37,933 nt of DNA from a virus. The stretch lies in IMG/VR virus record IMGVR_UViG_3300009068_000006; one strand, written 5' to 3'. The notes under the pieces are model-generated. The model was not told the DNA's origin. It searched no databases and saw nothing but the letters and a program-made list of their open reading frames with translations. The position numbers were made by a program, and so were the translations under genes. The first letter of the stretch is position 1, and each line of letters opens with the position of its first letter. Shown piece by piece: positions 1,891 to 23,360 of this stretch.

Positions 1891-1899
1891 GGAGCAATC

Positions 1900-2169: not shown

Positions 2170-2170
2170 C

Positions 2171-2287: not shown

Positions 2288-2592
2288 TGTCTATGAATTT
2301 AAAAGCGATAACCGTATGTATTGGTTATCAACAGATTACAAGCCTAAGTTCGGCTCAGAGCCTTACAGTGCCTGCCACTGACTTAACTGGGCTTAATCAA
2401 AAGCCGACTTTTGCCTTAATTACCCCTGAAACTCAAGCTGTTCGGTGGCGTGATGATGGCGTAGCCCCGACCGCTTCGGTTGGTATGCCTTTGGCGGCTG
2501 GCGTCACTTTACAGTACGACGGCAATTTAAAAAACATTCAATTTATTGAGCAAACTGGCAGTGCCAAGCTCAATATCTCTTATTACGCGTAA
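2287..2592 (+). CDS. Hypothetical structural-module protein (101 aa)
   Basis: ORF preceded by a GAGGGAG RBS. No motif recognised. Confidence 0.6.
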   Translation: MSMNLKAITVCIGYQQITSLSSAQSLTVPATDLTGLNQKPTFALITPETQAVRWRDDGVAPTASVGMPLAAGVTLQYDGNLKNIQFIEQTGSAKLNISYYA

Positions 2593-2601
2593 GGAATAGA
2601 C

Positions 2602-3099
2602 ATGGATCTCTCTAACGGCTTTAGCGGTATTGACTCTAGCAAGTTAATGGACTATTTCACCAAAGACTTTTTAAAAGATCTTGGCAAAATGGCTGTTTTA
2701 TGCGATGAATTGGCTAAACGTCAAGGCGCACTGTCCGCTGTTGAGGACGCCAATAAGCTACGTTCAGACGCTCAAACTTACGCTGATAGCGTAAAAGCAG
2801 AGGCCGACATCAATTTAGACCAGGCTAAACAAACTAATGCAGCCTCTAAAGAGCTAAAAAAAGCCTTAGATACGCGTGAAACAGACCTAAATACGCGTGA
2901 AGGTCAGTATGAAACAAATCTAGCCAATTTAACAAAAGCGGCAGAAAAGCACAAAAAGGCTGTAGTTGACAATGAAGCTTCTTTAGCTAAACTACAGTCT
3001 GATTTAGAGGCAAAACAAAGACAAATAGACGCAGACCGAAATGCCTTGGATGAGCGAATTAAAGCCTTCCAGGATAAAGTGGCGTCAATACAGGTTTAA
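2602..3099 (+). CDS. Coiled-coil protein (165 aa)
   Basis: AAGGA RBS. The sequence is highly charged with heptad-like K/E/A/L/Q content (…LQSDLEAKQRQIDADRNALDERIKAFQDKV…). Confidence 0.6.
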   Translation: MDLSNGFSGIDSSKLMDYFTKDFLKDLGKMAVLCDELAKRQGALSAVEDANKLRSDAQTYADSVKAEADINLDQAKQTNAASKELKKALDTRETDLNTREGQYETNLANLTKAAEKHKKAVVDNEASLAKLQSDLEAKQRQIDADRNALDERIKAFQDKVASIQV

Positions 3100-3153
3100 T
3101 TTTTTTAGATCGTACTGGTGCGATACACCAGGGTTTCTTAAGGAAACATCGAA

Positions 3154-3939
3154 ATGGACGAAAGTCAAGAAGTAGTCTTAGCGGACTCAACTGCCGCGCC
3201 AGAACAGGTAGCAACGGCTGCACCTGTAACTGAAGAAGTAGCGCCGGAAGCAGTAGAGCCAACAGAAGCACCCAAAACCTTCTCCCAAGAAGAATTGGAC
3301 GCCGCTATTGGTAAACGACTTGCTAGAGAACAACGTAAGTGGGAAAGAGAACAGGCAGCTAGAGCCGCTGAAAAGCAGCTTAAAACTCCAGTAGAAATCC
3401 CGCCGATTGAGCAGTTTAATTCACCTGACGAGTATGCCGAGGTATTGGCAGAGCGTAAGGCAGAAGAATTGCTTGCTAGGCGTGAACAAGCTAGGATGCA
3501 GTCTGAGATCATTGAGTCCTATCACGACAAAGAAGAAGATGCTCGGAATAAGTACGATGACTTTGAACAAGTTGCGTATAACCCCAAGCTCCCAATCACT
3601 GACGCGATGGCTCAAACGATTCAATCTTCCGATGTTGGCCCCGATATGGCTTATTACCTAGGGTCTAATCCGAAAGAAGCTGATCGTATTTCTCGTTTAT
3701 CGCCGCTTCAGCAGGCCAAAGAATTAGGGAAAATTGAGGCTAAATTAGCTGATAATCCCGTAGTAAAAAAGACTTCGAGCGCTCCAGCACCAATTGCTCC
3801 GATTACGGCAAGATCCTCTGGATCTTCAGCAACAGACACAACGGATCCGCGTGCCATTAAAAGCATGACGACTTCAGAGTGGATTGAAGCTGACCGCCAA
3901 CGTCAGATCAAGAAGTGGGAAGCGCAGAGAAACCGCTAA
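3154..3939 (+). CDS. Putative scaffolding protein (261 aa)
   Basis: Lies immediately upstream of the coat gene and has an AAGGAAA RBS. It is acidic and Ala/Glu/Lys-rich with predicted helical character, and no enzymatic motif. The assignment rests on position and composition only. Confidence 0.55.
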   Translation: MDESQEVVLADSTAAPEQVATAAPVTEEVAPEAVEPTEAPKTFSQEELDAAIGKRLAREQRKWEREQAARAAEKQLKTPVEIPPIEQFNSPDEYAEVLAERKAEELLARREQARMQSEIIESYHDKEEDARNKYDDFEQVAYNPKLPITDAMAQTIQSSDVGPDMAYYLGSNPKEADRISRLSPLQQAKELGKIEAKLADNPVVKKTSSAPAPIAPITARSSGSSATDTTDPRAIKSMTTSEWIEADRQRQIKKWEAQRNR

Positions 3940-3963
3940 CTATTTTTTAATTAGGACTTTATT

Positions 3964-5166
3964 ATGTCAAATTCGATCTTAACCATCGACATGATTACAA
4001 GAAAAGCTCTTGAAATCCTTGAGAACAACCTTGTAATCACACGTAACGTAAACCGCCAATATGATGACTCTTTCGCTGTTGAAGGTGCCAAAATTGGTTC
4101 AACCCTTCGTATCCGCTTACCAGACCGCGCTTTGGTAACTGACGGTGCCGCCTTGCAAGTTCAAGACGACAACGAACAGTACACAACTTTGTCTGTTGCT
4201 AGCCAAAAACACATTGGTGTTAACTTCACCTCTGCTGAATTGACTATGCAGTTAGATGACTTTGCAGAGCGTGTTTTAAAACCACGTATTTCACAGTTGG
4301 CTTCTTCTATCGATGCAGATGTAGCAAACAGCTACAAAGCAATCTATAACTCAGTTGGCACACCTGGCACAACGCCTTCTACTTCTTTGGTGCTGTTACA
4401 AGCTCAACAGAAGCTGAACGAAAACGCTGCTGTTATGTCCCCACGTTACGCTACTGTTAACCCAGCAGCCAACGCAGGCTTGGTTGAAGGCATGAAAGGT
4501 CTGTTTAATCCTACAGACACAATCAGCCGTCAATTTAAGAACGGCATGATGGGTATGGGTGTACTAGGCTTTGATGAAGTTAACATGAGCCAATCTATCA
4601 AGCAACATACAACTGGTGCTTGGGGTACATCTATTACTGTAACTTCAACAGTTGCTACTGAAGGCCAAGCTACTTTAGGTATTAGCTTTACAGGCTCAAG
4701 CAAGACTTGGAACGTAGGTGATGTATTTACAATTGCTAGCGTATACGCTGTTAACCCACAAACCCGTGAGTCAACAGGTAGCTTGCAACAGTTCGTTGTA
4801 ACTGCTGCTGCAACTGGTTCTTCTACAGCTACATTGTCTATTAGCCCAGCGATTTATACGTCTGCTAACGCATTGGCAACTGTGGATTCATTCCCAGTAG
4901 CTGCTGCTGTAGTAACTATGTTGGGTTCTGCTTCTAGCCAGTACGCTCAAAACTTGGTTTACCACAAAGATGCGATCACTTTTGCGACCGCTGACTTGTT
5001 GTTGCCACAAGGTGTTGACATGGCTTCCCGCCAAGTTCATAACGGTATCTCTATGCGTGTTGTACGTCAGTATGATATCAATAATGACCGTTTACCTTGC
5101 CGTATTGACGTTCTATATGGCTTTAGCACAATCCGTCCACAGATGGCCTGCCGTATTTTTGGCTAA
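3964..5166 (+). CDS. Major capsid (coat) protein, P22-coat-like family
   Basis: 400 aa. The N-terminal signature ITRKALEILENNLVITRNVNRQYDDSFAVEGAKIGSTLRIRLPDR matches the pattern I know from P22-type coat proteins. It follows the scaffold gene and is followed by a strong terminator. Confidence 0.85.
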   Translation: MSNSILTIDMITRKALEILENNLVITRNVNRQYDDSFAVEGAKIGSTLRIRLPDRALVTDGAALQVQDDNEQYTTLSVASQKHIGVNFTSAELTMQLDDFAERVLKPRISQLASSIDADVANSYKAIYNSVGTPGTTPSTSLVLLQAQQKLNENAAVMSPRYATVNPAANAGLVEGMKGLFNPTDTISRQFKNGMMGMGVLGFDEVNMSQSIKQHTTGAWGTSITVTSTVATEGQATLGISFTGSSKTWNVGDVFTIASVYAVNPQTRESTGSLQQFVVTAAATGSSTATLSISPAIYTSANALATVDSFPVAAAVVTMLGSASSQYAQNLVYHKDAITFATADLLLPQGVDMASRQVHNGISMRVVRQYDINNDRLPCRIDVLYGFSTIRPQMACRIFG

Positions 5167-6388: not shown

Positions 6389-7102
6389 ATGGCGACAACC
6401 GCCGGTGATCAAATTAACGCAGCATTACGTTTAATCGGTATGCTTGCCGAGGGTGAAACGCCTTCTGCCGATACTTCTAATGACGCGCTTAGTGCTTTGG
6501 ATCAAATGATTGATTCATGGAATACTGAGCGTTTGACCGTCTTTTCAACTCAAGATCAAGTTTTTACTTGGACAGCTAATCAAATTCATAGAACATTAGG
6601 CCCTACAGGTAACTTTGTAGGTAATCGTCCTATTTTGCTTGATGATGCCACTTATTTTAAAGACCCAACTAACGGCATTTCGTTTGGTATTAAGATCATT
6701 AACCAACAGCAATACGATGGTATTGCGGTTAAAACGGTGACTTCCACATATCCACAAGTAATGTGGATTAACATGGATTACCCTAATATTGATATGTACG
6801 TTTACCCAGTGCCTATAAAAGCATTGGAATGGCACTTTATTTCGGTTACTGAGTTAACACAACCAACTACTTTAGCAACCAGTTTGACTTTCCCGCCAGG
6901 TTATTTAAGATGCTTTAAATACAACTTAGCGTGTGAAATAGCTACTGAATTTGGCGTTGAACCGCCTGCTAACGTAGCTAGGATTGCCATGACTTCTAAG
7001 CGCAATCTGAAACGCATCAACAACCCTGACGATATTATGTCCTTGCCTTACAGCATTGTTGGCACGCGTCAGCGCTTTAACATCTTTGCCGGTAACTATT
7101 AA
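6389..7102 (+). CDS. Head-to-tail adaptor, P22 gp4-like N-terminal signature
   Basis: AAGGAG RBS. The N-terminus DQINAALRLIGMLAEGETPSADTSNDALSALDQMIDSWNTE resembles the P22 gp4 pattern (…LVRAALRKLGV…DAVDDLEAMMAEW…). It lies immediately upstream of a gp10-like gene, as in P22. Confidence 0.5.
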   Translation: MATTAGDQINAALRLIGMLAEGETPSADTSNDALSALDQMIDSWNTERLTVFSTQDQVFTWTANQIHRTLGPTGNFVGNRPILLDDATYFKDPTNGISFGIKIINQQQYDGIAVKTVTSTYPQVMWINMDYPNIDMYVYPVPIKALEWHFISVTELTQPTTLATSLTFPPGYLRCFKYNLACEIATEFGVEPPANVARIAMTSKRNLKRINNPDDIMSLPYSIVGTRQRFNIFAGNY

Positions 7103-8541
7103 TGAAATCGCATATTTTGGGGCAATCTTATGTTGCCCGCAGCATCAATGCGGCAAACGATGTAATGATGAATTTGTTTCCAGAAGCTACACCTCTTGAA
7201 GGTAAAGAAAACGGTTTTTTAAACAGAACGCCAGGAATGAGCAAACTTGCCACTATTGGCAATGGCCCCATCCGCGCCCTATGGTCAAGTCAAACTAATG
7301 GCGCAGACGCCTACGTTGTATCAGGTAGTGAAGTCTTTAAAATTGATGCTAGTTATCAAGCGGCAAAGATAGGCGACATAACAGGGTCAGGCCCTGTATC
7401 TATTGCCGATAATGGCACTCAATTGTTTTTTGCTTGTAACCCTGACGGATTTATTTACAATACAGTTACTAATATATTTGTACAAATTAGTGACGTAGAC
7501 TTCCCTGGCGCGGTAACTGTAGGCTATTTAGACGGCTATTTTGTATTTAATGAGCCAGACAGCCAAAAACTATGGGTTACTGAGATATTTGACGGCACTA
7601 TTATTGAACCTTTAGCGTTTGCTAGCGCTGAAGGATCGCCCGACTTAGTTCAAGCCATTAACGTAGACCAACGCGAGCTTTGGGTATTTGGTACCGATAC
7701 GATTGAGGTATGGTACAACGCAGGTACCGCCAACTTCCCTTTTGCGCGTATCCAAGGCGCGTTTAACGAGTTAGGGTGCTTAGCCCCTTACTCGGTAGCT
7801 AAACTCGATAACACGCTGTTTTGGCTTGGCAATGACCCCCGTGGCTACGGTATCGTCTATCGTGGTGAAGGCTATCGTGGTAGACGCGTATCTACCCACG
7901 CTGTTGAGTACGCCATTCAAAGTTATGGCGATGTATCTAATGCCCTTGCCTATACGTACCAGCAAGAAGGCCATGCGTTTTATGTCTTGATATTCCCAAC
8001 CGTTAATAAAACTTGGGTGTTTGATGTAGCTACAAGCGCGTGGCATGAGCGTGCAGGTTTTGAAGATGGCTTTTTTACCCGCCATCGTTCAAACTGTCAG
8101 ATGAACTACCAAAGCAAAACCATTGTTGGCGACTACTTAAACGGCAATATCTATGCTTTTGATTTAGATGTTTATGACGATAATGGTGCAGTGCAAAAAT
8201 GGGTTCGTTCATGGAGAGCGCTTCCTACAGGCACTAATAACCTAAAACGCACCGCACAACATTCTTTACAACTTGATTGCGAGTCAGGCGTTGGTACAGA
8301 CACAGGGCAAGCGCAGGATCCACAAGTAATGCTTCGTTGGTCAGATGATGGTGGTCATACTTGGTCAAATGAGCATTGGGTTTCTGTAGGCAAAATAGGC
8401 GCTTATTATCAACGTGCTATTTGGCGTCGCCTTGGTATGACCGTTAAACTTCGTGACCGCGTGTATGAAATTTCAGGCACAGACCCAAATAAGATAGTGA
8501 TTATGGGCGCCGAATTAATACTGAATGGTACAAATGCCTAA
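7102..8541 (+). CDS. Tail hub / packaged-DNA stabilisation protein, P22 gp10-like
   Basis: 479 aa, close to P22 gp10 at about 472 aa. Shared landmarks include IGDITGSGPVSIADNG (P22: VGDVAGSGRVSMAHG), DTIEVWYNAGTANFPF (P22: STIEYFSLTGA) and a C-terminal R-x-x-W-R-R-L-G…V…I…G segment. TAATG overlap with the adaptor gene. Confidence 0.7.
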   Translation: MKSHILGQSYVARSINAANDVMMNLFPEATPLEGKENGFLNRTPGMSKLATIGNGPIRALWSSQTNGADAYVVSGSEVFKIDASYQAAKIGDITGSGPVSIADNGTQLFFACNPDGFIYNTVTNIFVQISDVDFPGAVTVGYLDGYFVFNEPDSQKLWVTEIFDGTIIEPLAFASAEGSPDLVQAINVDQRELWVFGTDTIEVWYNAGTANFPFARIQGAFNELGCLAPYSVAKLDNTLFWLGNDPRGYGIVYRGEGYRGRRVSTHAVEYAIQSYGDVSNALAYTYQQEGHAFYVLIFPTVNKTWVFDVATSAWHERAGFEDGFFTRHRSNCQMNYQSKTIVGDYLNGNIYAFDLDVYDDNGAVQKWVRSWRALPTGTNNLKRTAQHSLQLDCESGVGTDTGQAQDPQVMLRWSDDGGHTWSNEHWVSVGKIGAYYQRAIWRRLGMTVKLRDRVYEISGTDPNKIVIMGAELILNGTNA

Positions 8542-8768: not shown

Positions 8769-9701
8769 ATGACAACATTTTTGACCCCATCCCCCAAACA
8801 ACAGTTTTTTACTGCTGCTGGCGTACCATTAGTAGGGGGTAAAGTTTATACATACGCTGCGGGTACCTCTACTCCACTAGCTACCTATCAAGATTCTACT
8901 GGCACCGTTAGTAATACTAACCCTATTATTTTGGATTCTAGGGGCGAATGTAATCTTTGGCTTTTACCTGCTAATGCGTATAAATTTATACTAAAAGACA
9001 GCACAGACGCCTTAATTTGGACTGTAGACAATATCAATTTAGGTATTAACTTTAGTAATGTCATCATTACTGGCGGTAGCATTAACGGCGTTACCATTGG
9101 CAATATTGACCCAGGGACTGCCGTATTTACCGATCTAACCGCAACTGGCACTGTCACTTTTAATGGTGTCACGCAGATGCAGATTCCGGCTGGGCCTACG
9201 GCTAATCGCTCTACAACCCCTGTAGATGGCATGATCCGCTACAACAGCACAACTGACCAGTATGAGGGTAACACCACTGTAGCTGGTCAAACTATCTCTA
9301 CGCTTCAATTATCTGGCACGGTGACCGCCATTTTGACTACAGCTAGCACTCATGGCTTATCTACGGGCGATTACATTACCGTTACAGGCGCTACGCCTGC
9401 TGCGTACAACGGTTCGTACAATATTACTTATATTAGTAGCACTTCGTTTAGTTACACTATGGCGTCAAACCCAGGCGGTAATGCTACGGTTGTAGGTACT
9501 TATGAAGTTCATTTATGGTCAAATATTGGTGGCGGGGCTACAGGTGGCGGTACTAATCAAATTTTTTTTGAAAATGAACAGACCGTAACCGCTAACTATA
9601 CAATCACTACAGGTCGTAATGCAATGAGCGCTGGGCCAATTACAATCGATACGGGCGTATCTGTATCTATCCCAACTGGTTCATATTGGGTAATCGTCTA
9701 A
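8769..9701 (+). CDS. Tail fibre / tailspike protein (310 aa)
   Basis: The N-terminus KQQFFTAAGVPLVGGKVYTYAAGTSTPLATYQDSTGTVSNTNPIILDSRGECNLWL is the widespread phage fibre/spike N-terminal anchor pattern (Q-F-x-D/A-x-G-x-PL-x-GGK-x-YTY-x-AGT). GAGG RBS. Confidence 0.7.
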   Translation: MTTFLTPSPKQQFFTAAGVPLVGGKVYTYAAGTSTPLATYQDSTGTVSNTNPIILDSRGECNLWLLPANAYKFILKDSTDALIWTVDNINLGINFSNVIITGGSINGVTIGNIDPGTAVFTDLTATGTVTFNGVTQMQIPAGPTANRSTTPVDGMIRYNSTTDQYEGNTTVAGQTISTLQLSGTVTAILTTASTHGLSTGDYITVTGATPAAYNGSYNITYISSTSFSYTMASNPGGNATVVGTYEVHLWSNIGGGATGGGTNQIFFENEQTVTANYTITTGRNAMSAGPITIDTGVSVSIPTGSYWVIV

Positions 9702-9711
9702 GGAAAATATT

Positions 9712-10149
9712 ATGGCTGGTACTTTAAATGTTACGACAATAAGCGGTGCATCTACAATAACTGGTGTGTCTACTTTAAACGCGGCTAGCGGAGTTCTTGC
9801 CACTCAAAACGGCATGACTGGTATTGCTAAAGCATGGGTTCAGTTTAATGGCGTTACTACTGTATCTATTGCTGGGTCATTTAATGTTAGTTCAGTAACT
9901 CGAAATAGCACCGGTCTATATACGATAACCTACACAACCGCTATGTCTAACGCAAATTATTCTGTTTCAGGTATGGCTCATTTTAAAGACGGAAATTCTG
10001 CAACGGCACTTAGAGTTGTATGTTTGTATGGCAATGCGGCTTTAGCTTCAGTTGTAACCACAACCAGCGTTCAAGTTACAGTTTTATATACAAATGGCTC
10101 TCCTGCGGAAGATTCTGATTGTGTAATGGTTACAGTTTTAGGTTCATAA
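9712..10149 (+). CDS. Fibre-tip-like protein, paralogue A (145 aa)
   Basis: AAGGA RBS. Starts MAGTLNVTT… and contains AKAWVQFNG…SFNVSSVTRNSTGLYTITYTTAMSNANYSV. It parallels the next gene motif for motif. Confidence 0.6.
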   Translation: MAGTLNVTTISGASTITGVSTLNAASGVLATQNGMTGIAKAWVQFNGVTTVSIAGSFNVSSVTRNSTGLYTITYTTAMSNANYSVSGMAHFKDGNSATALRVVCLYGNAALASVVTTTSVQVTVLYTNGSPAEDSDCVMVTVLGS

Positions 10150-10158
10150 GGATAAATC

Positions 10159-10557
10159 ATGGCTGGCACACTAATTACATCAACGCTTCAAGGCACAACC
10201 TTAACGGATGGGACTAATAGCACTTCAACTACTAACTGTATTAAAGGTAGTGCAAAGGCTTGGGTTAAATATGATGGAATTGCTCAAACAATTTATGCTT
10301 CATACAATGTAACTTCTGTTACATACCTTTCATCAGGTCGTTACCAAGTAAACTTTACTACTGCTTTTTCTTCTGCTAATTATGCTGCTTGTGTTACCGC
10401 TTCTGTTGATGGGCAAATAGGAGTTAGTGGTGCTTATAAACTAGCATTTACTGAACAAGCATCAACTTATTTAGCTGGTAGTTGCGTTATTGGAACTGGT
10501 CTACCCACCCCAGCCGTATCCAACTCTGCAATTATTAGTGCAATTTTTACAGGTTAA
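10159..10557 (+). CDS. Fibre-tip-like protein, paralogue B (132 aa)
   Basis: AAGGA RBS. Starts MAGTLITST… and contains AKAWVKYDG…SYNVTSVTYLSSGRYQVNFTTAFSSANYAA. Tandem paralogue of 9712..10149. Confidence 0.6.
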   Translation: MAGTLITSTLQGTTLTDGTNSTSTTNCIKGSAKAWVKYDGIAQTIYASYNVTSVTYLSSGRYQVNFTTAFSSANYAACVTASVDGQIGVSGAYKLAFTEQASTYLAGSCVIGTGLPTPAVSNSAIISAIFTG

Positions 10558-10570
10558 AAAGGAAATCAAA

Positions 10571-10972
10571 ATGACACAAGCAATCATCTTCACAAACTCC
10601 AATGGCGGTGTATCAGTTTGCATCCCTACTGGCGAAATCTCAATTGAAGCCGTACAAGCTAAAGATACCCCTGTTGGTTCTTTAATTGTTAATACTTCTG
10701 ACCTACCAACAAACAATGACTTCTTTGATGCTTGGGAACTGGCTGACGGAGTAGTTACTGTTAGCCTAGCTAAAGCTAAAGACATCACTAAGAAGCGTTT
10801 ACGAGCAGAGCGTGAGCCACTCTTAGCCGCACAAGATGTAGCGTTTCAGCGGGCTCAAGAAGCTAACACCTCTACAACGGCTATCGTGGCTGAAAAGAAA
10901 AGACTGCGTAATATTACAACTTTAGCTGATGCGGCTACAACTTTAGAAGGCTTACGAGCCATTGAGGTGTAA
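10571..10972 (+). CDS. Hypothetical protein, possible fibre assembly/chaperone-like (133 aa)
   Basis: I chose the internal ATG at 10571 with an AAAGGAAA RBS just after the upstream stop; the track start at 10490 would overlap the previous gene by 68 nt. The C-terminal KKRLRAEREPLL…LRNITTLADAATTLEGLRAI pattern resembles phage tail-assembly-chaperone-like domains. This is a recollection, not a search result. Confidence 0.5.
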   Translation: MTQAIIFTNSNGGVSVCIPTGEISIEAVQAKDTPVGSLIVNTSDLPTNNDFFDAWELADGVVTVSLAKAKDITKKRLRAEREPLLAAQDVAFQRAQEANTSTTAIVAEKKRLRNITTLADAATTLEGLRAIEV

Positions 10973-10974
10973 TC

Positions 10975-11493
10975 ATGGCATTAACCCTTAACGGTACAAG
11001 TGGAATTACATTTAACAACGCTACTACACAAGCTAGTGCTGGTAGTGTATTGCAAGTGGTTCAAACAACAACTACTTCAATTACTTCAACTACCTCTACA
11101 ACTTATCAAGCAAGTGCTTTAATTGGAACAATTACACCTAAATTTTCTACTAGCAAAATTTTGTTATCAATTACTGGTGGCGATGTTTATACAAATAACT
11201 CTGGAGTTGCTGGTGATGTAAAAATTTATCGTCAAATCAATAGTGGCGGTTATTCTGTAATGATAAGCTCAGCAACAGCTAGACAAGATTATGGATTTTA
11301 TGGCCCAAATAGTGCAATTTTAGTTCCTCATTCATTTATGTATTTAGATTCTCCAGCAACAACTACTGCTGTAAATTATCAACCATATTACAGAGTTAAT
11401 CCTGATGGTACTGCTGGAACATTTAGTTTTAATGTAGGGTATTTTGGATATCCTGGAATAGTAACATTAACTTTAATGGAGATTGCAGGATGA
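10975..11493 (+). CDS. Fibre-related structural protein (172 aa)
   Basis: GAGGTG RBS. Starts MALTLNGTSGITFNNATTQAS, similar in style to the two MAGTL paralogues. Thr/Ser-rich. Confidence 0.55.
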   Translation: MALTLNGTSGITFNNATTQASAGSVLQVVQTTTTSITSTTSTTYQASALIGTITPKFSTSKILLSITGGDVYTNNSGVAGDVKIYRQINSGGYSVMISSATARQDYGFYGPNSAILVPHSFMYLDSPATTTAVNYQPYYRVNPDGTAGTFSFNVGYFGYPGIVTLTLMEIAG

Positions 11494-11720: not shown

Positions 11721-12062
11721 ATGACTGTTTACGTCAAGGTTCTGATCCCTGCCAAGATTGCTGAAAATACGCAAACTACGCAATACACTGCGGGCAATAA
11801 CATCACGACTATTATTGACAAATTTACGGCTACTAACTATAGCGCGTCTAGCGCTACGCTTAGTGTGAACCTCGTTACGGTAGCGGGTACGGCAGGCAAT
11901 AACAACTTAATCATTAAGGCTAAAAGTTTGAGCGCAGGAGAAACGTATGCTTTTCCTGAGATTGTTGGACAAGCGTTGGAACCTGGTGGCTTTATATCCA
12001 CCATCGCTAGCGCTGCTACCTCCATCACTATTCGGTCTAACGGCCGTGAGATCTCAAGCTAA
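11721..12062 (+). CDS. Hypothetical protein (113 aa)
   Basis: ORF in the operon. Its stop overlaps the next start (TAATG). Confidence 0.5.
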   Translation: MTVYVKVLIPAKIAENTQTTQYTAGNNITTIIDKFTATNYSASSATLSVNLVTVAGTAGNNNLIIKAKSLSAGETYAFPEIVGQALEPGGFISTIASAATSITIRSNGREISS

Positions 12063-12907
12063 TGCAACATACAGTCAACGTCACTTATGGCAAAGGGTTT
12101 AATTTCCTGCCGGTAGTGCCTTTGCGTGAAAAAATAGAACTCTTGCAAGAAGAATTGTTAAAAAGACCCCAAGCGGATGTTCAATACTTACATTCGTTTG
12201 AGCCTGGCAAGTACATCCGTACCATGATTGCCCCGCCCAATACCGTTATCGTAGGTGCCGAGCATAAGACGCCATATAAAGTTAGGCTTGAAAAAGGTAC
12301 GATTGCGGTTAATATCGGCGATGAAATTAAAATACTAACGGCGCCGCTTGAAATGGACGTACTGGCTGGCGCCAAACGTGCTGGTCATGTCTTTGATGAA
12401 GAATTGGTTTGGGTCGATATTTATGATAACCCTGATGATTGCCAAGATATTGCAACGATTGAAGAACGCCTGTACGTTATTCCTGAATGTGGGTTAATGT
12501 CCAATCGCATACCAAAGCAACTTGCGGAAGTTAAAAGTGACTATGAACTGTTTTTAACTCAAATTGGATTAGATCAAACAGAAGTAGATAAAATAGTATC
12601 TATTGAGCATGATTTAATGGAAATGCCAAAAGAATATTTTACGGCGCTTAAACCATCAAAAATTCATGGTGATGGTTTATTTGCGACAAAAAGCTTTAGA
12701 ATGTGGGAAGTTGTTTGCCCATGTAGATTAGACGGAAAACGGACGCCAGGCGGTAGATTTGTTAACCATTCACATAAAAACAATCTAATGCCAATAAAGA
12801 TTGGCGATGATATTTATGCAGTGGCAAGTCAAGATATTTACGAAAACGAAGAATTATTGCTAAATTATCGGGATATGATGCTTGTTAATTTTGGTATTGG
12901 GCTATAA
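12062..12907 (+). CDS. Cupin-like beta-barrel / SET-domain fusion protein (putative protein-lysine methyltransferase)
   Basis: The C-terminal ~80 aa carry SET landmarks: KIHGDGLFATKSFRMWEVV (cf. vSET GGYGVFARKSFEKGELV), RFVNHSHKNN (NHSxxPN-type) and ENEELLLNY (E-E-L-x-x-x-Y). The N-terminal half (HSFEPGKYIRTMIAPPNTVIVGAEHKTPYKVRLEKGTIAV…) looks like a small double-stranded beta-helix. Confidence 0.7.
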   Translation: MQHTVNVTYGKGFNFLPVVPLREKIELLQEELLKRPQADVQYLHSFEPGKYIRTMIAPPNTVIVGAEHKTPYKVRLEKGTIAVNIGDEIKILTAPLEMDVLAGAKRAGHVFDEELVWVDIYDNPDDCQDIATIEERLYVIPECGLMSNRIPKQLAEVKSDYELFLTQIGLDQTEVDKIVSIEHDLMEMPKEYFTALKPSKIHGDGLFATKSFRMWEVVCPCRLDGKRTPGGRFVNHSHKNNLMPIKIGDDIYAVASQDIYENEELLLNYRDMMLVNFGIGL

Positions 12908-12919: not shown

Positions 12920-13684
12920 ATGTCAGCGGGAATATCAGCGAGTGCGGCAGTTGTCGGCGGTGCAATTCTTGGAGGGGCTTACTTAAGCTCACAAGCGGCT
13001 AAAAACGCGGCGGGTACGCAAGCCGACGCTGCGCGATACGCTGCGGATGCCCAAGGTAGAGCTACAGAACAACAAATAGCTCTTTCGGAGCCATATCGGG
13101 CTGCGGGTACGACTGCCCTAAACCAACTATCCCAAATGAGTCAGCCTGGCGGCAGATTAACTGAAGAATTTAACCCTGCTACGGCCTCCACTATGGATCC
13201 AGGCTACGCGTTTAGGCTTAGAGAAGGCATGAAAGCGCTCAACGCAACGGCTGCGGCTAGAGGTGGTTTGATCTCTGGCAACGCTCTAAGAGCCGCTACA
13301 GGCTATGGTCAAGAAATGGGATCGCAAGAGTACACCAACGCGTTTAACCGCTATCAGATAAACCGCGCTAATTTACTTGATCCGTTGAAGTTTTTATCAG
13401 GTCAAGGCCAAGCTGCTGCGGCTGGACAGGCCGCTAACATTGGCGCCGGTGCAACCAACACTGCCAACTTAATGACAGGCGCGGCTAATGCTAACGCAGC
13501 AGGTCAAGTTGGCTCTGCTAATGCGTATGCAAACGCTATAGGTCAAGGCGTTAGTATGTATAACACTAATCAATTATTGAATAGATTTGCGCCACAAACG
13601 CAAGCAGCTAATTATTATGGTACAACGCCAGGAACTACGGGTGATTTTCAATCCTCATCATACGGCGGCAGTGCAATAGGTTAA
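12920..13684 (+). CDS. Internal virion / ejection protein candidate (254 aa)
   Basis: AAGGAG RBS. It has an N-terminal hydrophobic Gly/Ala segment (AAVVGGAILGGAYL) followed by Ala/Gln/Asn/Gly-rich low complexity. It occupies the position of P22-type ejection proteins, after the tail genes and before lysis. Confidence 0.5.
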   Translation: MSAGISASAAVVGGAILGGAYLSSQAAKNAAGTQADAARYAADAQGRATEQQIALSEPYRAAGTTALNQLSQMSQPGGRLTEEFNPATASTMDPGYAFRLREGMKALNATAAARGGLISGNALRAATGYGQEMGSQEYTNAFNRYQINRANLLDPLKFLSGQGQAAAAGQAANIGAGATNTANLMTGAANANAAGQVGSANAYANAIGQGVSMYNTNQLLNRFAPQTQAANYYGTTPGTTGDFQSSSYGGSAIG

Positions 13685-13694: not shown

Positions 13695-14858
13695 ATGCCA
13701 ATCGATCCAAATATCCCCCTACAAGCTAAAAATCCGCAAATTGAAACGGGTATAAACCAATTAGCTTCGGTTGGCGAAGCTATGAAAATTGGCGAAATGC
13801 AACGCGGCATAGGCGTTCAAAACGAATTACGCAAATTATATTCGCAAGGGATTGATGTCGGTACCCCTGAAGGATTTAAACAAGTAGCCGCGCTTGACCC
13901 TGCAACAGCGTTAAAACTACGGGCTGACGCGTTGCAAGGACGTAAACTTGAAGGTGATATTACTAAAACCGGTTTTGAAATAGATAAGCAAAAAATGGAT
14001 TTGTTTCGTGAGCGCATAGGTAATCTTGCGTTTAACCCCTCAAACGCTAATATTCAAGCGCATTTAGAAGATTCGGTTAAAAGAGGTGAAATAACACCGC
14101 AAGTGGCGCAACAACAGTTTGCACAAGCTACCGCTGTTCCTATAGATAAACGTTCAGATTACTTTACTCAAATGGGTATGAAAGTAGAACAACGCGTAAC
14201 AGCGGCTGAACAATTACGCCATAACAGAGCTACTGAAGGTATTCAAGGTGGTCATTTGGATGTTGCTCGTCAAAATTTAGCAGCGCAAAATAATCCTGAT
14301 TTACAAGGTACGCTTGCCGCAGCTAAAGCTAGTGGTACAACTAAAGGCAAAGCTATTGCTACAGCAGAGCTTAATTTACCTGGAGCTATTGCTACAGGTC
14401 AAGAACTTGAACGTAAAATTTATGAAATGGTTGGTAAACCTCCAGTTTATAAAGATGGTAAATTAGTTCAAGCTGGCACGGCGCCTCATGCAGGATTTAA
14501 AGGCGCTGTTGGTATGGGAAGCTGGAAAACACTTGGAATACCAGGTGTTGAACAACTTATGCCTGGATCAGCTGCATCTGACTTTAAAGCGCGTTTTGAT
14601 GAAGTTATGGGTGGCGCGTTTGAAGAAGCTTACAATACGCTTAAAGGCGGTGGTTCTATTACTGAAAAAGAAGGTGAAAAAGCAACCGCAGCTAAAACTC
14701 GTATGCGTTTAGCCCAAAGTGAACAAGAATTTATAACGGCTGCAAGAGAATACGCAGGTGTTGTTAACAAAGGCATAGAACGTGCAAAAACTAAAGCAGC
14801 TGGCGGTAGTGCAAATCCAGCCGCAAGCGGTGAAATTGACTTTAATAGCTTGAAATAA
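13695..14858 (+). CDS. Internal virion / ejection protein candidate (387 aa)
   Basis: AAGGA RBS. No catalytic motif recognised. Assigned by position and composition. Confidence 0.5.
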   Translation: MPIDPNIPLQAKNPQIETGINQLASVGEAMKIGEMQRGIGVQNELRKLYSQGIDVGTPEGFKQVAALDPATALKLRADALQGRKLEGDITKTGFEIDKQKMDLFRERIGNLAFNPSNANIQAHLEDSVKRGEITPQVAQQQFAQATAVPIDKRSDYFTQMGMKVEQRVTAAEQLRHNRATEGIQGGHLDVARQNLAAQNNPDLQGTLAAAKASGTTKGKAIATAELNLPGAIATGQELERKIYEMVGKPPVYKDGKLVQAGTAPHAGFKGAVGMGSWKTLGIPGVEQLMPGSAASDFKARFDEVMGGAFEEAYNTLKGGGSITEKEGEKATAAKTRMRLAQSEQEFITAAREYAGVVNKGIERAKTKAAGGSANPAASGEIDFNSLK

Positions 14859-14868: not shown

Positions 14869-17202
14869 ATGGATGTCCGTTTACCAGATGGTACCTTGTT
14901 AAGAAACGTGCCTGATGGCATGAGCAAAACTGATTTAACTGCTAAATTGCAATCTAATGGTTACGATATTGGCAAATTAGGCGCGCCTGCGGAAGCTATG
15001 CCTTCTGTACGTCAAAATGTAGCTGCGGAAGAATCAAATTTTATTCCTAGAAGTTGGGAAGAAGCTAAAACACAATTACGTCAAGATCCGCTTATTGGCG
15101 TTGGCGCTGGGCTTTATAAAGGTTTTAAAGATGTCACTGACACCGGATTAAAGTTAGCCGCAAGCGCTGTTGATTATGTTTTGCCAAAGCCACCAGGCGA
15201 AATGAGCCGCCGTGAAAAAATTAACGCTTTAGCGGACATTCAAGATAAACAATATGAAGCTACTTATGGCGAAAATATAACCGCGCCTTCAAGTCGTATT
15301 GTTGGTAATGCTTTAGCTACATATCCTGTTGGCGGCGCTATTGCAGCGCCAATTAAAGCCGTTGGTAATGCTATACCTGCTGTGGCTAGATTTACCGCCC
15401 CTATTGCTGAATCTATTGCTTCAGGTGGCTTTAGAACAGGTTTACCGACAGCTACTACATTGGCTGAAAAAGCAGTTGCAACAGGTGTTAGAGCTGCTGG
15501 CGGCGCTACTTTAGGTGGTGCTTCAGCAGCTGCCGTTAACCCTAATGATTTTGAATCAGGTGTTGTTATTGGCGCGGCGGTTCCTACTGTTGTAGCCCCC
15601 GTAGTTAAAGGATTAACTAAAGTTGGCGGCAAACTTTATGACTTAGCAGCAGGGCAATTACCTAATGTTCAAGCAGGTAAATTAGCCCGTGAAATGGCTG
15701 GCGAACAAATTAATGCAATCCGCGCTGCCAACGGAGCTGCACCTTTAGATATTACCGCCGCACAAGCTACGTACAACATCGACAACGACGTTTGGCAAGC
15801 ATTTAATGATGTCATCCAAGGCAAAGATAAAAAAGCCGTATTTAGCACTTTAAAAACTAAACAAGCACAAGATCAGTTTGACATTTTGGCTAACTTAGCT
15901 GGTGGAGCTAACCAAGCCGAAGCTAGAGGAAGTCGTGAAGCGACCAACAAACTACTAAACCAAGTTACTACGCCAATGCGTGAACAGAATTTATTGGCGG
16001 CTAACGTAGGCGGTCAAGTTGGCATCCCATTGCAACAAGAAGCTAACGCAGCTCGTCAAGCTGCGGCGGCTAATGTGGATGAAGTACGCCGTTTAGAAGC
16101 GCTTAAAGGTCGTGCTATTAGCCCACAGCCAGGTAATCTAATGAATGATTACCCATTAAGCAATATGCCTGAAAAAGCTGATCAATTATCTAATCAAGCC
16201 GCCGCAGAATCATTGGCGCAAGGTGAAGCCGCAAGAATTGCTGAAGCTAAAGTAGCTGATTTAAAAGCAAATGGTTTAAATCCATTAGATATTAGCGGTG
16301 TAACGGGCAAATTGCGTAGTTTGGCTACAGCTCCTGGCACCCGCGCTGACCCAGTTCAAGTCAAAGTATTGTCTAGCGTTGAGCAACAACTTAAAGACCT
16401 AGCAGCGCGTAATGGCGGTGTTATTAATGCAGCAGATTTATACCAATTACGAAAAACAGGTATTAACGATACGATTGAAGCTGAATTGCGTTCAGGTGGA
16501 TTAGACCCAAGTACGCAAAGCAAACGTATTGCTGATATGTTGGGTCAAGTTCGTCCTTTGGTTGATGACGCTATTGAAGCAGCTGGTGGCAAAGGTTGGC
16601 GTGATTATTTATCTACCCACGCTGCCGGTATGCGTCAAATTGAGCAAAAAGATCTTGCGGCTACCGCAATGGAATTGTACAAAAGATCACCTAAAGATTT
16701 TATTGAGCTTATTAAAGGCAATAATGTTAAAGCTATCGAAGAAATTTTTGGCCCAGGCAATTACGATATTGCCAAAACAATGGGCGATCAAATGGTCAAA
16801 TTGCAAAAAGTTGCTGGTGAAGTTGAACGTGATGTTATTGACATTCCTAAACGTATCGCAGCTGGTCGCAAAGCTTTAGAAATTACCGAACCAAGCGTTT
16901 CAGGCAAAATTCCAGGCTTTGTAGGCTACAAAACGGCGTTGGCTAAGAAATTTGTCCAAGTTGCGGAAGGCAAAGTTAATCAAAAAACAATGGAGGCGCT
17001 TATTAAGGGCGCTGAAAATGGCAAAAATATGAACGATTTGCTTAATACGTTGCCAGCACAAGAGCGTGTTAAAGTCCTTAAAGTTTTGTCAAATAGTAAA
17101 GAATGGAACGCTTGGGTAACTCGCGCTGCTGGAGCTGCTGCAACTGAACCTGTTAATAATTTAGCTCCAAGTGAGCAAAATCAAAATGCACTTGCGAGAT
17201 AA
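14869..17202 (+). CDS. Large internal virion / ejection protein candidate (777 aa)
   Basis: AAGGA RBS. It is the largest non-enzymatic ORF and has an Ala/Gly-rich hydrophobic central region (aa ~140-250) followed by long helical stretches. Assigned by position. Confidence 0.55.
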   Translation: MDVRLPDGTLLRNVPDGMSKTDLTAKLQSNGYDIGKLGAPAEAMPSVRQNVAAEESNFIPRSWEEAKTQLRQDPLIGVGAGLYKGFKDVTDTGLKLAASAVDYVLPKPPGEMSRREKINALADIQDKQYEATYGENITAPSSRIVGNALATYPVGGAIAAPIKAVGNAIPAVARFTAPIAESIASGGFRTGLPTATTLAEKAVATGVRAAGGATLGGASAAAVNPNDFESGVVIGAAVPTVVAPVVKGLTKVGGKLYDLAAGQLPNVQAGKLAREMAGEQINAIRAANGAAPLDITAAQATYNIDNDVWQAFNDVIQGKDKKAVFSTLKTKQAQDQFDILANLAGGANQAEARGSREATNKLLNQVTTPMREQNLLAANVGGQVGIPLQQEANAARQAAAANVDEVRRLEALKGRAISPQPGNLMNDYPLSNMPEKADQLSNQAAAESLAQGEAARIAEAKVADLKANGLNPLDISGVTGKLRSLATAPGTRADPVQVKVLSSVEQQLKDLAARNGGVINAADLYQLRKTGINDTIEAELRSGGLDPSTQSKRIADMLGQVRPLVDDAIEAAGGKGWRDYLSTHAAGMRQIEQKDLAATAMELYKRSPKDFIELIKGNNVKAIEEIFGPGNYDIAKTMGDQMVKLQKVAGEVERDVIDIPKRIAAGRKALEITEPSVSGKIPGFVGYKTALAKKFVQVAEGKVNQKTMEALIKGAENGKNMNDLLNTLPAQERVKVLKVLSNSKEWNAWVTRAAGAAATEPVNNLAPSEQNQNALAR

Positions 17203-20262: not shown

Positions 20263-20511
20263 TCACTTTGTAGCCTTTCTTAGTATTGCTCTAGCAAACT
20301 TAATAAAAGAATCTTGATAATCACGCACTTGAAAAGTTGTATCAAAGATTTCTGTTATTTCCTCATCTGTTAGTTCTTTTACTAGATGGGTGTAGAGTGG
20401 CGTTGTAATTCCCATGTTTTCCACTTCATTTTCGGACACACAATCCGCTAAATACAATGCTTCATCCTTGAATCTATTTAAATTAATCCACGCTACTGGT
20501 TCATTGTTCAT
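20263..20511 (-). CDS. Hypothetical early protein (82 aa)
   Basis: ATGA overlap with the SNF2 stop. Contains the EPVAW…TPLYTH…LTDEEI pattern common in small phage proteins of unknown function. Confidence 0.55.
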   Translation of the reverse strand: MNNEPVAWINLNRFKDEALYLADCVSENEVENMGITTPLYTHLVKELTDEEITEIFDTTFQVRDYQDSFIKFARAILRKATK

Positions 20512-21842
20512 TTCAATTCCTCAAGTGCAATATCAGATAACGCCCGTTTATCCTTCAGAGCGTCCCAAATCCTCAAATCAATCGTTTTATTGGTCAATAA
20601 AAGGTAAACCCATACATCATGCTTTTGACCACTGCGATGCAACCTGCCAATAGTTTGCTCGTACAACTCTAGGCTCCAGGGCAGGGATACAAAGACCATC
20701 TTGCACCCGCCATGCTGAAGATTGAGGCCATGCCCTGCTGACTTAGGGTGAATCAATAGCAACTCTACCGTGCCATCATTCCAACGCTCAATGGCCCTAG
20801 TGTCATTGATCGTCTGGGCGTTGGGGTAACGACGCTTGAGTTCAGCCAATTCCTCAACGTAGTTGTAGACAATGATGGTGTTGGCGTGTTGGTTTTCCGC
20901 AAGCAACTCATCAAGCAAGTCAAACTTGTGAGTGCTAAACCACATAGGCGTCTTAGTCACGTTCATGCGCCCAGGGCGATTTGATGCCGTTGTAACCGTT
21001 TCGTAGACCCAACCGCCTGCCATCTGCTGCAACTTGCCTGTGACCACGCCTGCATTGACTGCGGTGATCTGTACGTCCTTAAACTCAATGACAAAATCCT
21101 TTTTCATTTTCTCGTACGGCTCGCGGTCAGCCAAATCGCATTTCATTTCAATTACGTGGCATGGCGGGAGCTTGTCAGCGTATTCGCCTGCGTCTAACAG
21201 GAATGTTGCAGGTTTGATTCGTTCCATAACTTTTCCTAATGAGCCTACCCGAGGCTCCCACTCGCCAAAGTCCTTATTGACTAGGACAAAATACTGTTGC
21301 ATAAACGCACCTTTAGCGCGCCCAAGCAGATCTTGATTGACGATCTTGCATTGCCCGAACACATCCTCAAGCCCATTGCTTGTAAACGAGCCTGTAAGCC
21401 CCCAACGGATGTTGATGGTGTCTACTACCTTAGCTAATGCCTTAAAGCGCTTGCCTGACGGATTCTTGAGCTTGGTTAGCTCATCAAACACTACGGCGTC
21501 AAAATCTAAGAATTGTTCTGTTAGCCATTCAATGTTGTCGTAGTTAACTACCACCACGTTAGTCTTGCTACGCAGCGCTTTAAGACGCGCAGCAGGCGCG
21601 CCTACCGCAACACTTAGGGATAACCCTGATGCCCACTTGGGTTGTTCTACAGGCCACACATCCGTACAGACGCGCTTAGGGGCAAGGACAAGCCAACGCT
21701 TGACTAACCCCTGCTTGATGGCGTCTTGCATGGCTGCAAGCGTTAGCGCCGTCTTGCCAGCGCCTACGGGCGCGAGGATCATAGCGCGGTTGTTCTCATA
21801 CAAGAAATCGGCTGCCGTTTCCTGATAATCGCGTAACTTCAT
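20508..21842 (-). CDS. SNF2/DEAD-like superfamily-2 helicase
   Basis: Motif I LAPVGAGKT, motif II VVFDELTKL, motif III WGLTGS, motif V SAGHGLNLQ and motif VI QTIGRLHRSGQ. Confidence 0.85.
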   Translation of the reverse strand: MKLRDYQETAADFLYENNRAMILAPVGAGKTALTLAAMQDAIKQGLVKRWLVLAPKRVCTDVWPVEQPKWASGLSLSVAVGAPAARLKALRSKTNVVVVNYDNIEWLTEQFLDFDAVVFDELTKLKNPSGKRFKALAKVVDTINIRWGLTGSFTSNGLEDVFGQCKIVNQDLLGRAKGAFMQQYFVLVNKDFGEWEPRVGSLGKVMERIKPATFLLDAGEYADKLPPCHVIEMKCDLADREPYEKMKKDFVIEFKDVQITAVNAGVVTGKLQQMAGGWVYETVTTASNRPGRMNVTKTPMWFSTHKFDLLDELLAENQHANTIIVYNYVEELAELKRRYPNAQTINDTRAIERWNDGTVELLLIHPKSAGHGLNLQHGGCKMVFVSLPWSLELYEQTIGRLHRSGQKHDVWVYLLLTNKTIDLRIWDALKDKRALSDIALEELK

Positions 21843-22135
21843 AAGTCAACTATCCATTGCATGATTTGCTCTTTAGTCCATAAACAAGCGTATTTTTGCT
21901 TTAGCGACCACATTTCATCCGCAAATACATCTTGCATAGGCGATAGATGACCGCCTTTAGGACGCTTGATCTCGATAAACCACGTATCGCCATTAGGCAA
22001 ACAAGCAATTCGATCAGCAACCCCACGCTGGCTAACAGACTTAAATTTATAAGTCTTGCCGCCAATCGAGGCAACGGCCCAAACAAAGTATTTTTCAATC
22101 TCTGTTTCTCTTTCAGGTTTATTTTGTGTTTTCAT
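21839..22135 (-). CDS. VRR-NUC domain nuclease (98 aa)
   Basis: GVADRIACLPNGDTWFIEIKRPKGGHLSPMQ is the PD-(D/E)XK D…E-x-K core in VRR-NUC form. I preferred the start at MKTQNK (22135) over the track start at 22189. ATGA overlap with the SNF2 start. Confidence 0.7.
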   Translation of the reverse strand: MKTQNKPERETEIEKYFVWAVASIGGKTYKFKSVSQRGVADRIACLPNGDTWFIEIKRPKGGHLSPMQDVFADEMWSLKQKYACLWTKEQIMQWIVDL

Positions 22136-22208
22136 GTTAAAAAGTTTAGCACAGATTAAAAAGCTGTGGTAAAGTTTAATCTCAGTCAACTAAAGTAAAG
22201 GAAACAAA
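22136..22208. promoter_or_regulatory. Divergent promoter region between the two replication/recombination operons
   Basis: A 73-bp AT-rich spacer between back-to-back starts at 22135 (-) and 22209 (+). There is a plus-strand sigma70-like candidate: TTAGCA (22146-22151), an 18-nt spacer, then an extended -10 TGgTAAAGT (22167-22175). AAAGTTTA is repeated at 22141 and 22171. Confidence 0.4.
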
Positions 22209-23348
22209 ATGAACGATGTAGTCCAACATTCCCGTGTAGTTGGTGGTTCTACCGCCAAACGTGTTATCAGTTGCCCAGGCTCTGTAGCCTTGTGCGACAA
22301 GATGCCTTCCAAGCCTAGCAGCAAATACGCTGACGAAGGCACCCTCTTACATAGCGTCATGGATAAGATCCTTGCCGATGGCGTAACGCCTGAGTCATTG
22401 ATCGGTATGCAGTATGAGGGCATTAGCCTAACCCAAGAATTGCTTGATGAGAAGATTTACCCTGCTCTTAAAGCCTTAGATGAAATTGACCCAAATAAGG
22501 AGATGGAATATGCGACCGAAACACGTGTTGGCTTTGGTGACCTTTTGCCTGGTGTGTTTGGCAGTACCGATTTGCTTGGTCGTATTGGGAAACGCGCTTT
22601 CATTTTGGATTGGAAGTTTGGTAGCGGAGTTCCAGTGGGCGCAGAAGATAATCCTCAACTGATGTTTTATGCCGCCGCAGCTATGCGGACACCCGAGGTG
22701 CAATGGGTGTTTAAGGACATAGAAGAAATCGAGTGCATCATTGTGCAACCGCCGTCTGTAAAGCGTTGGGTTACAACAACTAAACGCATCAAACTGTTTG
22801 AGCAGGAGCTAGCAACGGCGGTCAAGATCAGCCAAATGCCTGACGCGCCACTAAACGCAGGTGATCATTGCCGTTGGTGTGCTGCCAAGCCTACTTGCCC
22901 TAAGATGACAGGCATGGCCGACCGCGCTTTAGCTCTAGCCATTGGCGACATTGATGCTATGCAAATTAGTCGTTATCTGACAAAAGCCAGTATGTTAGAA
23001 CAATGGATTACCGACCTACGCGCCCTAGCGCACACCATGTTAGAAGCCGGCGCTGTTGTGCCTGACTGGAAGTTAGTCGCTAAGCGTGCTACGCGCCAAT
23101 GGGCTGACGATGATCAGGCTTTGGTTGCAATGCTTAACGAGGGTATACCCGAGGAGGAGCTATTAACAACTAAAGTAATATCGCCTGCTCAGGCAGAAAA
23201 AGTATTGAAAAAGCATGGTAAGCAATTGCCTGCCAATCAAGTAGTAGCAGTAAGCAGTGGCAGTACGTTGGTCGAGGAGTCAGATTCAAGACCGGCGGTA
23301 TTACAAATCGGGCAGCAACTTACCGCAGCCCTTTCTAAAATTCAATAA
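22209..23348 (+). CDS. Cas4/RecB-like PD-(D/E)XK exonuclease with a Cys cluster (DUF2800-like)
   Basis: N-terminal ISCPGS Cys, a nuclease core GSTDLLGR…FILDWKFG, and a C-terminal C-x2-C-x5-C (HCRWCAAKPTCPK), as in Cas4/AddB-type Fe-S nucleases. AAAGGAAA RBS. Confidence 0.7.
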   Translation: MNDVVQHSRVVGGSTAKRVISCPGSVALCDKMPSKPSSKYADEGTLLHSVMDKILADGVTPESLIGMQYEGISLTQELLDEKIYPALKALDEIDPNKEMEYATETRVGFGDLLPGVFGSTDLLGRIGKRAFILDWKFGSGVPVGAEDNPQLMFYAAAAMRTPEVQWVFKDIEEIECIIVQPPSVKRWVTTTKRIKLFEQELATAVKISQMPDAPLNAGDHCRWCAAKPTCPKMTGMADRALALAIGDIDAMQISRYLTKASMLEQWITDLRALAHTMLEAGAVVPDWKLVAKRATRQWADDDQALVAMLNEGIPEEELLTTKVISPAQAEKVLKKHGKQLPANQVVAVSSGSTLVEESDSRPAVLQIGQQLTAALSKIQ

Positions 23349-23360
23349 GGACTAAAAATC

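Follow-up and report, generated by a model that had tools for sequence, protein, structure and literature searches.

Bacterial SET proteins are a precedent for SET-type lysine methyltransferases in prokaryotes, and the Alt protein of phage T4, an ADP-ribosyltransferase and not a methyltransferase, is a precedent for an enzyme that travels in the virion and modifies proteins of the host as it enters the cell. We know of no bacterial SET protein or Alt-type packaged enzyme that is fused to a cupin or encoded in a podovirus ejection-gene cluster. Among viruses, the closest described system is vSET (A612L) of the chlorella virus PBCV-1, which both encodes and packages the protein; vSET adds three methyl groups to Lys27 of histone H3 and has been implicated in the shut-off of host transcription (PMC7019647). 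For phages, one genome paper lists an open reading frame (ORF) with a SET domain in passing (PMC9025141), and full-text literature searches, which also covered methyl-lysine in the virions of phages, returned no study of a phage SET protein in a virion module, of the cupin family considered here or of a fusion of the two; one literature match to a phage SET was a false match to 'C2-set domain'. Here we describe such a fusion in IMG/VR virus record IMGVR_UViG_3300009068_000006, a stretch of 37,933 nucleotides (nt) that is called the window below. The gene, at 12062..12907 on the + strand, encodes a protein of 281 amino acids (aa) in which a predicted cupin-fold module is followed by a minimal SET domain, and it lies immediately before genes for putative ejection proteins. 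At roughly 85% probability, the protein joins a genuine and probably active SET methyltransferase to a cupin of a morphogenesis slot. That its target is a virion or ejection protein of the phage, modified during assembly, is the reading we prefer for its function, tentatively and at somewhat less than even odds.

Sequence and predicted structure of the SET domain

The ORF begins with ATG, and its end coordinate includes the stop codon. By Pfam, Foldseek and profile alignment, residues 184-281 (12611..12904, + strand) form the SET domain. The match to Pfam SET (PF00856) covers residues 184-269 and scores 30.8 bits (E 4.2e-7) against a curated cut-off of 22.4, and relatives of the protein score 23-40 bits. 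When a profile of the family was compared with the PDB, SET chains of MLL1 were matched at an E value of 9e-8, in two pieces that correspond to SET-N (HGxGLFA...GE) and SET-C (RFINHS...EELxxDY). On the + strand, the motifs seen in the translation pair one by one with those of MLL1: G203-D-G205-L-F-A208 (12668..12685), which holds the GxG of the S-adenosylmethionine (SAM) pocket, stands as GDGLFA opposite HGRGLF; N235-H-S-H-K-N-N241 (12764..12784), with the RFxNHS core, stands opposite RFINHSCEPN; and E263-E-L-L-L-N-Y269 (12848..12868) stands as EELLLNY opposite EELTYDY. Counting along the MLL1 sequence, we take Y269 to occupy the catalytic tyrosine position and L267 the Phe/Tyr-switch position, at which the family has V, I, T or L.

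Between the two aligned pieces, about 41 MLL1 residues (SET-I, chain positions 45-85) face just three positions of the profile, and in the translation G205 and N235 are separated by 29 residues. On this alignment the phage SET domain is an unusual minimal variant without the SET-I insert, which is compatible with membership of the superfamily because SET-I is variable across it. An AlphaFold model of residues 140-281 has a predicted local distance difference test (pLDDT) score of 91.8 and a predicted template modelling (pTM) score of 0.83, and all 50 of its top 50 PDB matches are SET or PR domains with a probability of 1.00, among them MLL1, SETD8, EZH2, NSD and vSET (3kma). By profile, motifs and modelled fold, the domain belongs to the SET superfamily.

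Conservation of the domain was scored over ~136 representatives with a mutual identity of at most 50%. S199, G203, G205, N235, H236, N241, E264 and Y269 are each at least 99% conserved (G205, N235 and H236 100%; G203, N241, E264 and Y269 99%), and R232 reaches 96%. Because the residues of the catalytic motifs are 99-100% conserved, the domain is probably an active SAM-binding protein-lysine methyltransferase. An earlier note on this DNA, made by eye from the letters, had placed three SET landmarks in residues 195-272 and had converted these correctly to nt 12644-12877. All three landmarks are borne out by the translation, by the MLL1 alignment and by conservation of at least 99% in the representatives; the SET profile scores above its cut-off, and the NHS and Tyr positions are kept on alignment.

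In characterised SET enzymes, SET-I forms one wall of the substrate groove. Without SET-I, the groove of the phage enzyme would have to be completed otherwise, and the obvious candidate is a pre-SET helical hairpin (helices at residues ~146-168 and 172-179 in the secondary structure of the model; 12497..12601, + strand), because the hairpin accompanies SET wherever SET occurs: it stays N-terminal to SET in the permuted or SET-only relatives P0139, P0134, L103 and L104.

Structure of the full-length protein

A full-length AlphaFold model, built from an alignment of 30 sequences, has a mean pLDDT of 86 and a pTM of 0.51. In this model residues ~18-128 (12113..12445, + strand) form a beta-barrel with nine strands in residues 41-122, and the module has conserved H44, Y51, R53 and H68. 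The top Foldseek matches of the full-length model in the PDB are cupins, led by 4e2g (E 2e-6, target-normalised template modelling (TM) score ~0.66) and followed by 3fjs, KdgF and TM1459 (E ~2e-6 to 3e-5, probability 1.00, target TM ~0.6-0.7); the non-enzymatic dimerisation cupin of CENP-C is also among the top fold matches. A search by sequence returns 4e2g as a weak match (E 0.018). The N-terminal beta-barrel that the earlier note had proposed can hence be named a cupin, chiefly by its fold.

Between the modules, pLDDT falls below 50 at residues 143-145. Since the hinge is so poorly ordered in the model, and since pTM is 0.51 for the whole protein versus 0.83 for SET alone, the prediction fits two independently folding modules on a flexible hinge. 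Over its full length the protein matches phrog_34170 (E 8e-26), and searches of NCBIfam and PADLOC gave no meaningful match.

Distribution and architectures of the family

Homologues form 969 clusters at 90% identity, most of them ~280 aa long and most unnamed proteins from metagenomes. An exhaustive profile search over representatives clustered at 50% identity retrieved 4448 proteins at E <=1e-3, a number that includes cupin-only relatives, and 224 at E <=1e-30. Among 50,697 sequenced phage records, the SET part occurs in eight, which represent five phages, all with the same cupin fusion; Rhodoferax phage P26218 and Pseudoalteromonas phage PH1, both of which carry the fusion, are cultured. 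The claim that SET domains are uncommon in phages, made in the earlier note, is thus right for sequenced isolates, whereas in metagenomes the family is large.

Separate hidden Markov models (HMMs) for the two modules were used to classify 269 retrieved proteins. The order cupin-SET was found in 231 and the order SET-cupin in 22, and 12 proteins had the cupin only and four the SET only. All 22 permuted proteins (for example P0135, P0139, P0145, P0160 and P0169) fall within the 150 representatives at 50% identity. They are uninterrupted ORFs that pass the Pfam SET cut-off, with the pre-SET helices ahead of SET and, behind it, a cupin that keeps the motifs MPQ...H..G.Y.R...GxxHK. The fusion therefore exists in both orders, which argues that the pair has been selected as a pair. 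In a comparison that asked whether the permuted proteins form one clade, their nearest neighbours are mostly non-permuted, for the SET part in 18 of 22 and for the cupin part in 15 of 22, proportions that are near the background ratio at identities saturated at ~50%.

The SET part can also be lost. P0126 (L093:154-687), a close cupin-only relative found on 11 contigs, ends shortly past the barrel, and the intact genes at the gp7, gp20 and gp16 positions begin 12 nt later. This is a clean natural loss of SET, and because the ejection genes remain intact without it, SET is an accessory that is dispensable for making particles.

One permuted protein, P0266 (L092:9001-10182; 393 aa), which is encoded in a T7-like structural module, has an extra N-terminal domain of ~115 residues. 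A GNAT-like reading of this domain, made by eye, was dropped, as neither Pfam nor NCBIfam nor PDB sequence searches supported it.

Gene neighbourhood

The gene is joined to the ORF before it by a TAATG overlap at 12060..12064 (+ strand): the upstream stop TAA (12060-12062) and the ATG (12062-12064) have one base in common. The upstream ORF (11721..12062, + strand; 113 aa) has no PHROG or Pfam match, and a homologue of it lies directly upstream in 22 of 77 related loci. Because this overlap, which the earlier note had read correctly, lies in an unbroken + strand structural operon, expression of the cupin-SET gene is late and translationally coupled.

Downstream, the next gene (12920..13684, + strand) encodes a P22 gp7-like ejection protein (phrog_598 'DNA ejection', E 3e-27). 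It is followed by a P22 gp20-like ejection protein gene (13695..14858, + strand; phrog_2534 'released from the phage upon host infection', E 5e-8), which carries the same PHROG label as P22 gene 20, and then by a 777-aa protein at the gp16 position (14869..17202, + strand), which has no PHROG, Pfam or NCBIfam family and for which position suggests an ejection role. The earlier note had set the gene between fibre genes and three ejection genes; PHROG matches support the fibre, gp7-like and gp20-like assignments, and the third ejection gene is assigned from its place. In relatives, the large proteins at the gp16 position carry a lytic transglycosylase domain, which Pfam matches as SLT in L092 and which an SLT-like motif, read by eye, suggests for L099 (9140-11716).

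The P22 gene order 10-26-14-7-20-16 parallels that of the window, with the cupin-SET gene in the place of P22 gene 14. This neighbourhood is conserved: a gp7-like gene comes next in all 69 close IMG/VR loci whose flank was long enough and in all 9 more distant loci, among them those of phage PH1, of a Manatee Spring podovirus and of contigs from Paraburkholderia, Acinetobacter and Methylophaga bins. The same gene follows the permuted fusion in three loci (L090:227-1084, L091:329-1177 and L092:9001-10182) and the SET-only gene of L103, a Comamonadaceae contig. The gp7-like proteins begin with MSG and an Ala/Gly-rich hydrophobic stretch. Linkage of SET to the gp7-like gene is invariable in every SET-containing phage locus examined, and this conserved synteny supports a link of the protein with the ejection-protein cluster.

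The slot extends to T7-like phages and to cupins without SET. In two members of the Autographiviridae, Ralstonia phage RSB3 and Variovorax phage VAC_51, a cupin-only homologue occupies the slot of T7 gene 13, with tail tubular protein B on one side and the internal virion proteins on the other, and the homologue in Vibrio phage VPMS1 lies directly before a 'DNA ejection' gene. The permuted order also turns up in this slot: one SET-cupin gene, within a T7-like module that has portal, capsid and the tubular proteins A and B, lies there ahead of an internal protein that contains SLT. It is the cupin that ancestrally occupied the position upstream of the ejection genes.

Base composition changes within the gene, with a GC content of 35-37% over the SET-coding part (window 12450-12900), 44-47% over the cupin part and 52-53% over the next gene, and the GC skew climbs to ~+0.24 over the SET-coding part. 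The low GC content is not taken as a sign that SET was acquired recently, given that other stretches of the operon go down to 32-36%.

Function of the fusion protein

Our preferred reading is that the enzyme would be produced late in infection, together with the structural proteins. The cupin would dock on, or work with, the machinery for ejection proteins or virion assembly and so hold SET by its targets, and SET would bind SAM and methylate one or more lysines of an ejection protein or another virion protein during assembly. Such methylation would be an accessory step, not essential for building the particle. We infer a cupin tether and methylation of a nearby protein from the two domains, the slot, the fusion in both orders, the linkage to the gp7-like gene, the late expression and the natural loss of SET. 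The slot itself, shared with P22 gp14 and T7 gp13, suggests by analogy that the cupin likewise helps to bring internal proteins into the particle.

Several observations weigh against this reading. The cupin has no homology to P22 gp14 (probability 1.5%) or T7 gp13 (probability 0.6%) detectable by hhalign, and the PHROGs differ, so that a role of the cupin as an assembly factor is argued from position. The full-length model has no confident contact between cupin and SET. Lacking SET-I, the domain may need a partner for catalysis or may be impaired, and enzymatic activity, SAM binding, substrate and virion association are all predictions from sequence. One relative is found away from ejection genes altogether: the SET-only gene L104:6007-6564, which consists of the pre-SET helices, SET and a tail of ~50 residues, is in a chromosomal island of a member of the Rhodocyclales, between the genes for a primase-helicase and a signal-peptide protein and next to rpoD. 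This locus may be a small integrated element.

Lysine conservation in the ejection proteins does not single out a methylation site either. Among 40 gp7-like proteins from SET-carrying loci, no lysine is at least 80% conserved, and phages without SET have lysines in the same N-terminal region of the gp7-like protein. For the gp20-like protein and the protein at the gp16 position, the lysine alignments held three and ten sequences, respectively, too few for the purpose. As an anecdotal observation, K28 of the window's gp7-like protein, which follows the hydrophobic N-terminus, is a Q in the SET-less relative L093; several phages that carry SET have no lysine of the K28 type, whereas the SET-less RSB3 and VPMS1 do have one.

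The leading alternative to modification during assembly, possible though on balance unlikely, is that the cupin-SET protein is packaged with the ejection proteins, is injected and methylates a host protein (nucleoid-associated, translational or defence-related) in the next infection. The gene is embedded in, and coupled to, the ejection cluster in every phage lineage examined, and a host-directed enzyme that is made late would be useful mainly if it were carried into the next cell. Dispensability of SET for particle formation is also what one would expect of an effector, and vSET, which PBCV-1 packages, offers an analogous precedent (PMC7019647). Against injection, a knotted, beta-rich SET domain would have to unfold to pass the tail channel and then refold. 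Moreover, gp13, which fills the analogous slot in T7-like phages, is not listed in the virion proteome of a T7-like phage (PMC4517105); gp13 is not a homologue of the cupin, and its absence from the listed virion proteins leans, by analogy, towards an assembly-only role. The broader proposition that a widespread group of podoviruses of Proteobacteria injects SET to methylate a host target early, with the cupin as a handle for packaging or targeting, we regard as unlikely.

An inactive SET, retained as a structural or binding module (for example a chaperone that holds a lysine peptide of an ejection protein without methyl transfer), is improbable. The absence of the SET-I insert would suit it, as would position 237 of the NHS motif, which is S in 109 and A in 22 of the 136 representatives. 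A weak match to the PR domain family (E 0.003, under the cut-off of that family) points the same way, given that many PR members have little or no activity. However, the residues for SAM binding and catalysis (GxG, N-H and the C-terminal Tyr) are each at least 99% conserved, which is hard to explain without catalysis, and vSET shows that a minimal viral SET with a short insert can be active (PMC7019647).

We consider it still less probable that the cupin has an enzymatic activity of its own, such as that of a metal-dependent hydroxylase or isomerase, which would make the fusion a two-step protein modifier or a writer and eraser in the manner of SET with JmjC. Over 144 representatives, H44 is kept in 126 (88%) and H68 in 116 (81%); together with position 72, which is H in 78 and Y in 20, these conserved positions have an arrangement that recalls part of cupin motif 1 (H-x3-H), and Y51 and R53 are 98-99% conserved. 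A non-canonical metal site involving H44 may exist. The canonical two-motif metal site (G-x5-HxH-x3,4-E-x6-G and G-x5-PxG-x2-H-x3-N), however, is at most partly present. Motif 1 of the window's protein keeps H68 only, with A at position 66 and, at position 72, the Y of its clade; the first motif-1 histidine (position 66) is found in 38 of the 144, and the motif-2 histidine of 4e2g aligns to A107. The top folds are small cupin_2 proteins and the CENP-C cupin, and a JmjC-like demethylase was rejected as a candidate, as the cupin does not have the HxD/E...H triad and JmjC is not among the fold matches.

We give very little credence to a tail fibre or adhesin component, as the cupin-only homologues are labelled in PHROG and GenBank: HMM matches to the labelled phrog_24280 and phrog_12032 (E ~1e-15) and a place directly after the window's fibre-like genes speak for it, but the fold is that of a small cupin plus an enzyme domain and not of a fibre, no experimental basis for the labels was found in the records, fibre genes of some relatives sit downstream of the ejection genes while cupin-SET stays beside the gp7-like gene, and the homologue in the Autographiviridae, in its place next to tubular protein B and the internal virion proteins, is far from the fibre gene.

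Genome of the window

By the gene order that PHROG matches give, the window has the look of a nearly complete podovirus genome. The scaffold gene at 3154, a P22-type coat gene at 3964 and an adaptor gene at 6389 precede a P22 gp10-like tail hub (head closure Hc3; 7102..8541, + strand; phrog_578, E 3e-122), with which the tail segment of the operon starts; in the relative L006, PF11134 (Phage_stabilise) is matched. Fibre-like genes, also assigned by PHROG, occupy 8769-11493. Among them, two small tandem genes at 9712-10149 and 10159-10557 are paralogues (both phrog_11355, tail fibre protein), and with a third small gene of similar composition at 10975-11493 they may form a set of alternative or stacked fibre tips. 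Beyond the ejection genes come lysis genes with an endolysin at 18632, a replication module at 20508-28462, the terminase at 32819 and the portal at 35032.

On the minus strand, 30204-31610 matches phrog_2443 'amidoligase enzyme' and phrog_16683, and the adjoining 29193-30173 matches a PHROG of unknown function; the pair (29193-31610) may be a module for peptide or metabolite ligation in the early region. No family is matched by the ORF at 688-1890 (400 aa).

The right end of the window carries terminase and portal (32819-37272) and its left end scaffold and coat (688-5166), and relatives are contigs of 34-43 kb; the 37.9 kb probably represent a whole genome in circularly permuted form. A Megablast search with 25 kb of this sequence against the 50,697 phage records gave no match. 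Binning places related contigs with Burkholderiales, Rubrivivax and Comamonadaceae, and a prophage copy is found in a Paraburkholderia chromosome, which together suggest a betaproteobacterial host.

Discussion

Detection of a SET domain in this family is not new in itself: a few relatives are already labelled 'SET domain' automatically by JGI or NCBI, and one GenBank record reads 'pbcV-1 histone H3-lys 27 methyltransferase structure'. What has been undescribed is the minimal form of the domain, its cupin partner and a conserved genomic role beside the ejection genes. In phages, the methylation of protein lysines has hardly been explored, and in this large and strongly conserved family SET is firmly tied to the genes whose products are the first to leave the capsid. 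If ejection proteins are modified, this would be a new maturation step of the podovirus machinery for DNA delivery; if the protein is injected, it would be a new class of phage effector and a prokaryotic counterpart of the packaged vSET. Either way, a function would be given to a cupin family that is unnamed or mislabelled as 'short tail fiber' in the slot of P22 gp14 and T7 gp13. A SET domain that has no SET-I but does have a pre-SET hairpin should also interest enzymologists. With P26218 and PH1 as cultured carriers and with natural variants that have lost SET, the question is directly testable.

Set against known systems, the SET domains of the MLL/KMT2 type and of SETD8 are the best matches in sequence and fold, and SET-N and SET-C of MLL1 correspond motif for motif to the phage domain. 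The ~41 residues of SET-I in MLL1 have no counterpart in the phage SET, which also lacks the post-SET zinc cluster and is encoded in a virion operon.

For the N-terminal half, the relatives are the stand-alone phage cupins, namely RSB3 ORF39, VPMS1 MS_018 and VAC_51 gene 57, which are homologous to residues ~20-135 (98.9% by hhalign for RSB3 ORF39). They sit in the same slot without SET, under the labels 'short tail fiber' or 'tail fiber adhesin'. P22 gp14 and T7 gp13 hold the same late-operon position as the cupin and have no enzyme domain.

The comparison with vSET, which the earlier note had drawn by eye, holds for the fold (3kma, E 2.8e-5, target TM 0.61) and not for the sequence, in which the match to 1n3j/3kma is not significant (E 0.16) and spans residues 190-217 only, behind the better MLL-type matches. 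vSET comes from a eukaryotic virus, is a protein of its own and has histone H3 as its target, whereas the phage protein is a cupin fusion with a pre-SET hairpin and a shorter gap between GxG and NHS, and it comes from a bacterial virus whose hosts, unlike those of vSET, have no histones. The two nevertheless share the features of a small viral SET domain: a length of ~100-120 residues, the GxG and NHS motifs, a C-terminal Tyr and an aliphatic residue at the Phe/Tyr-switch position.

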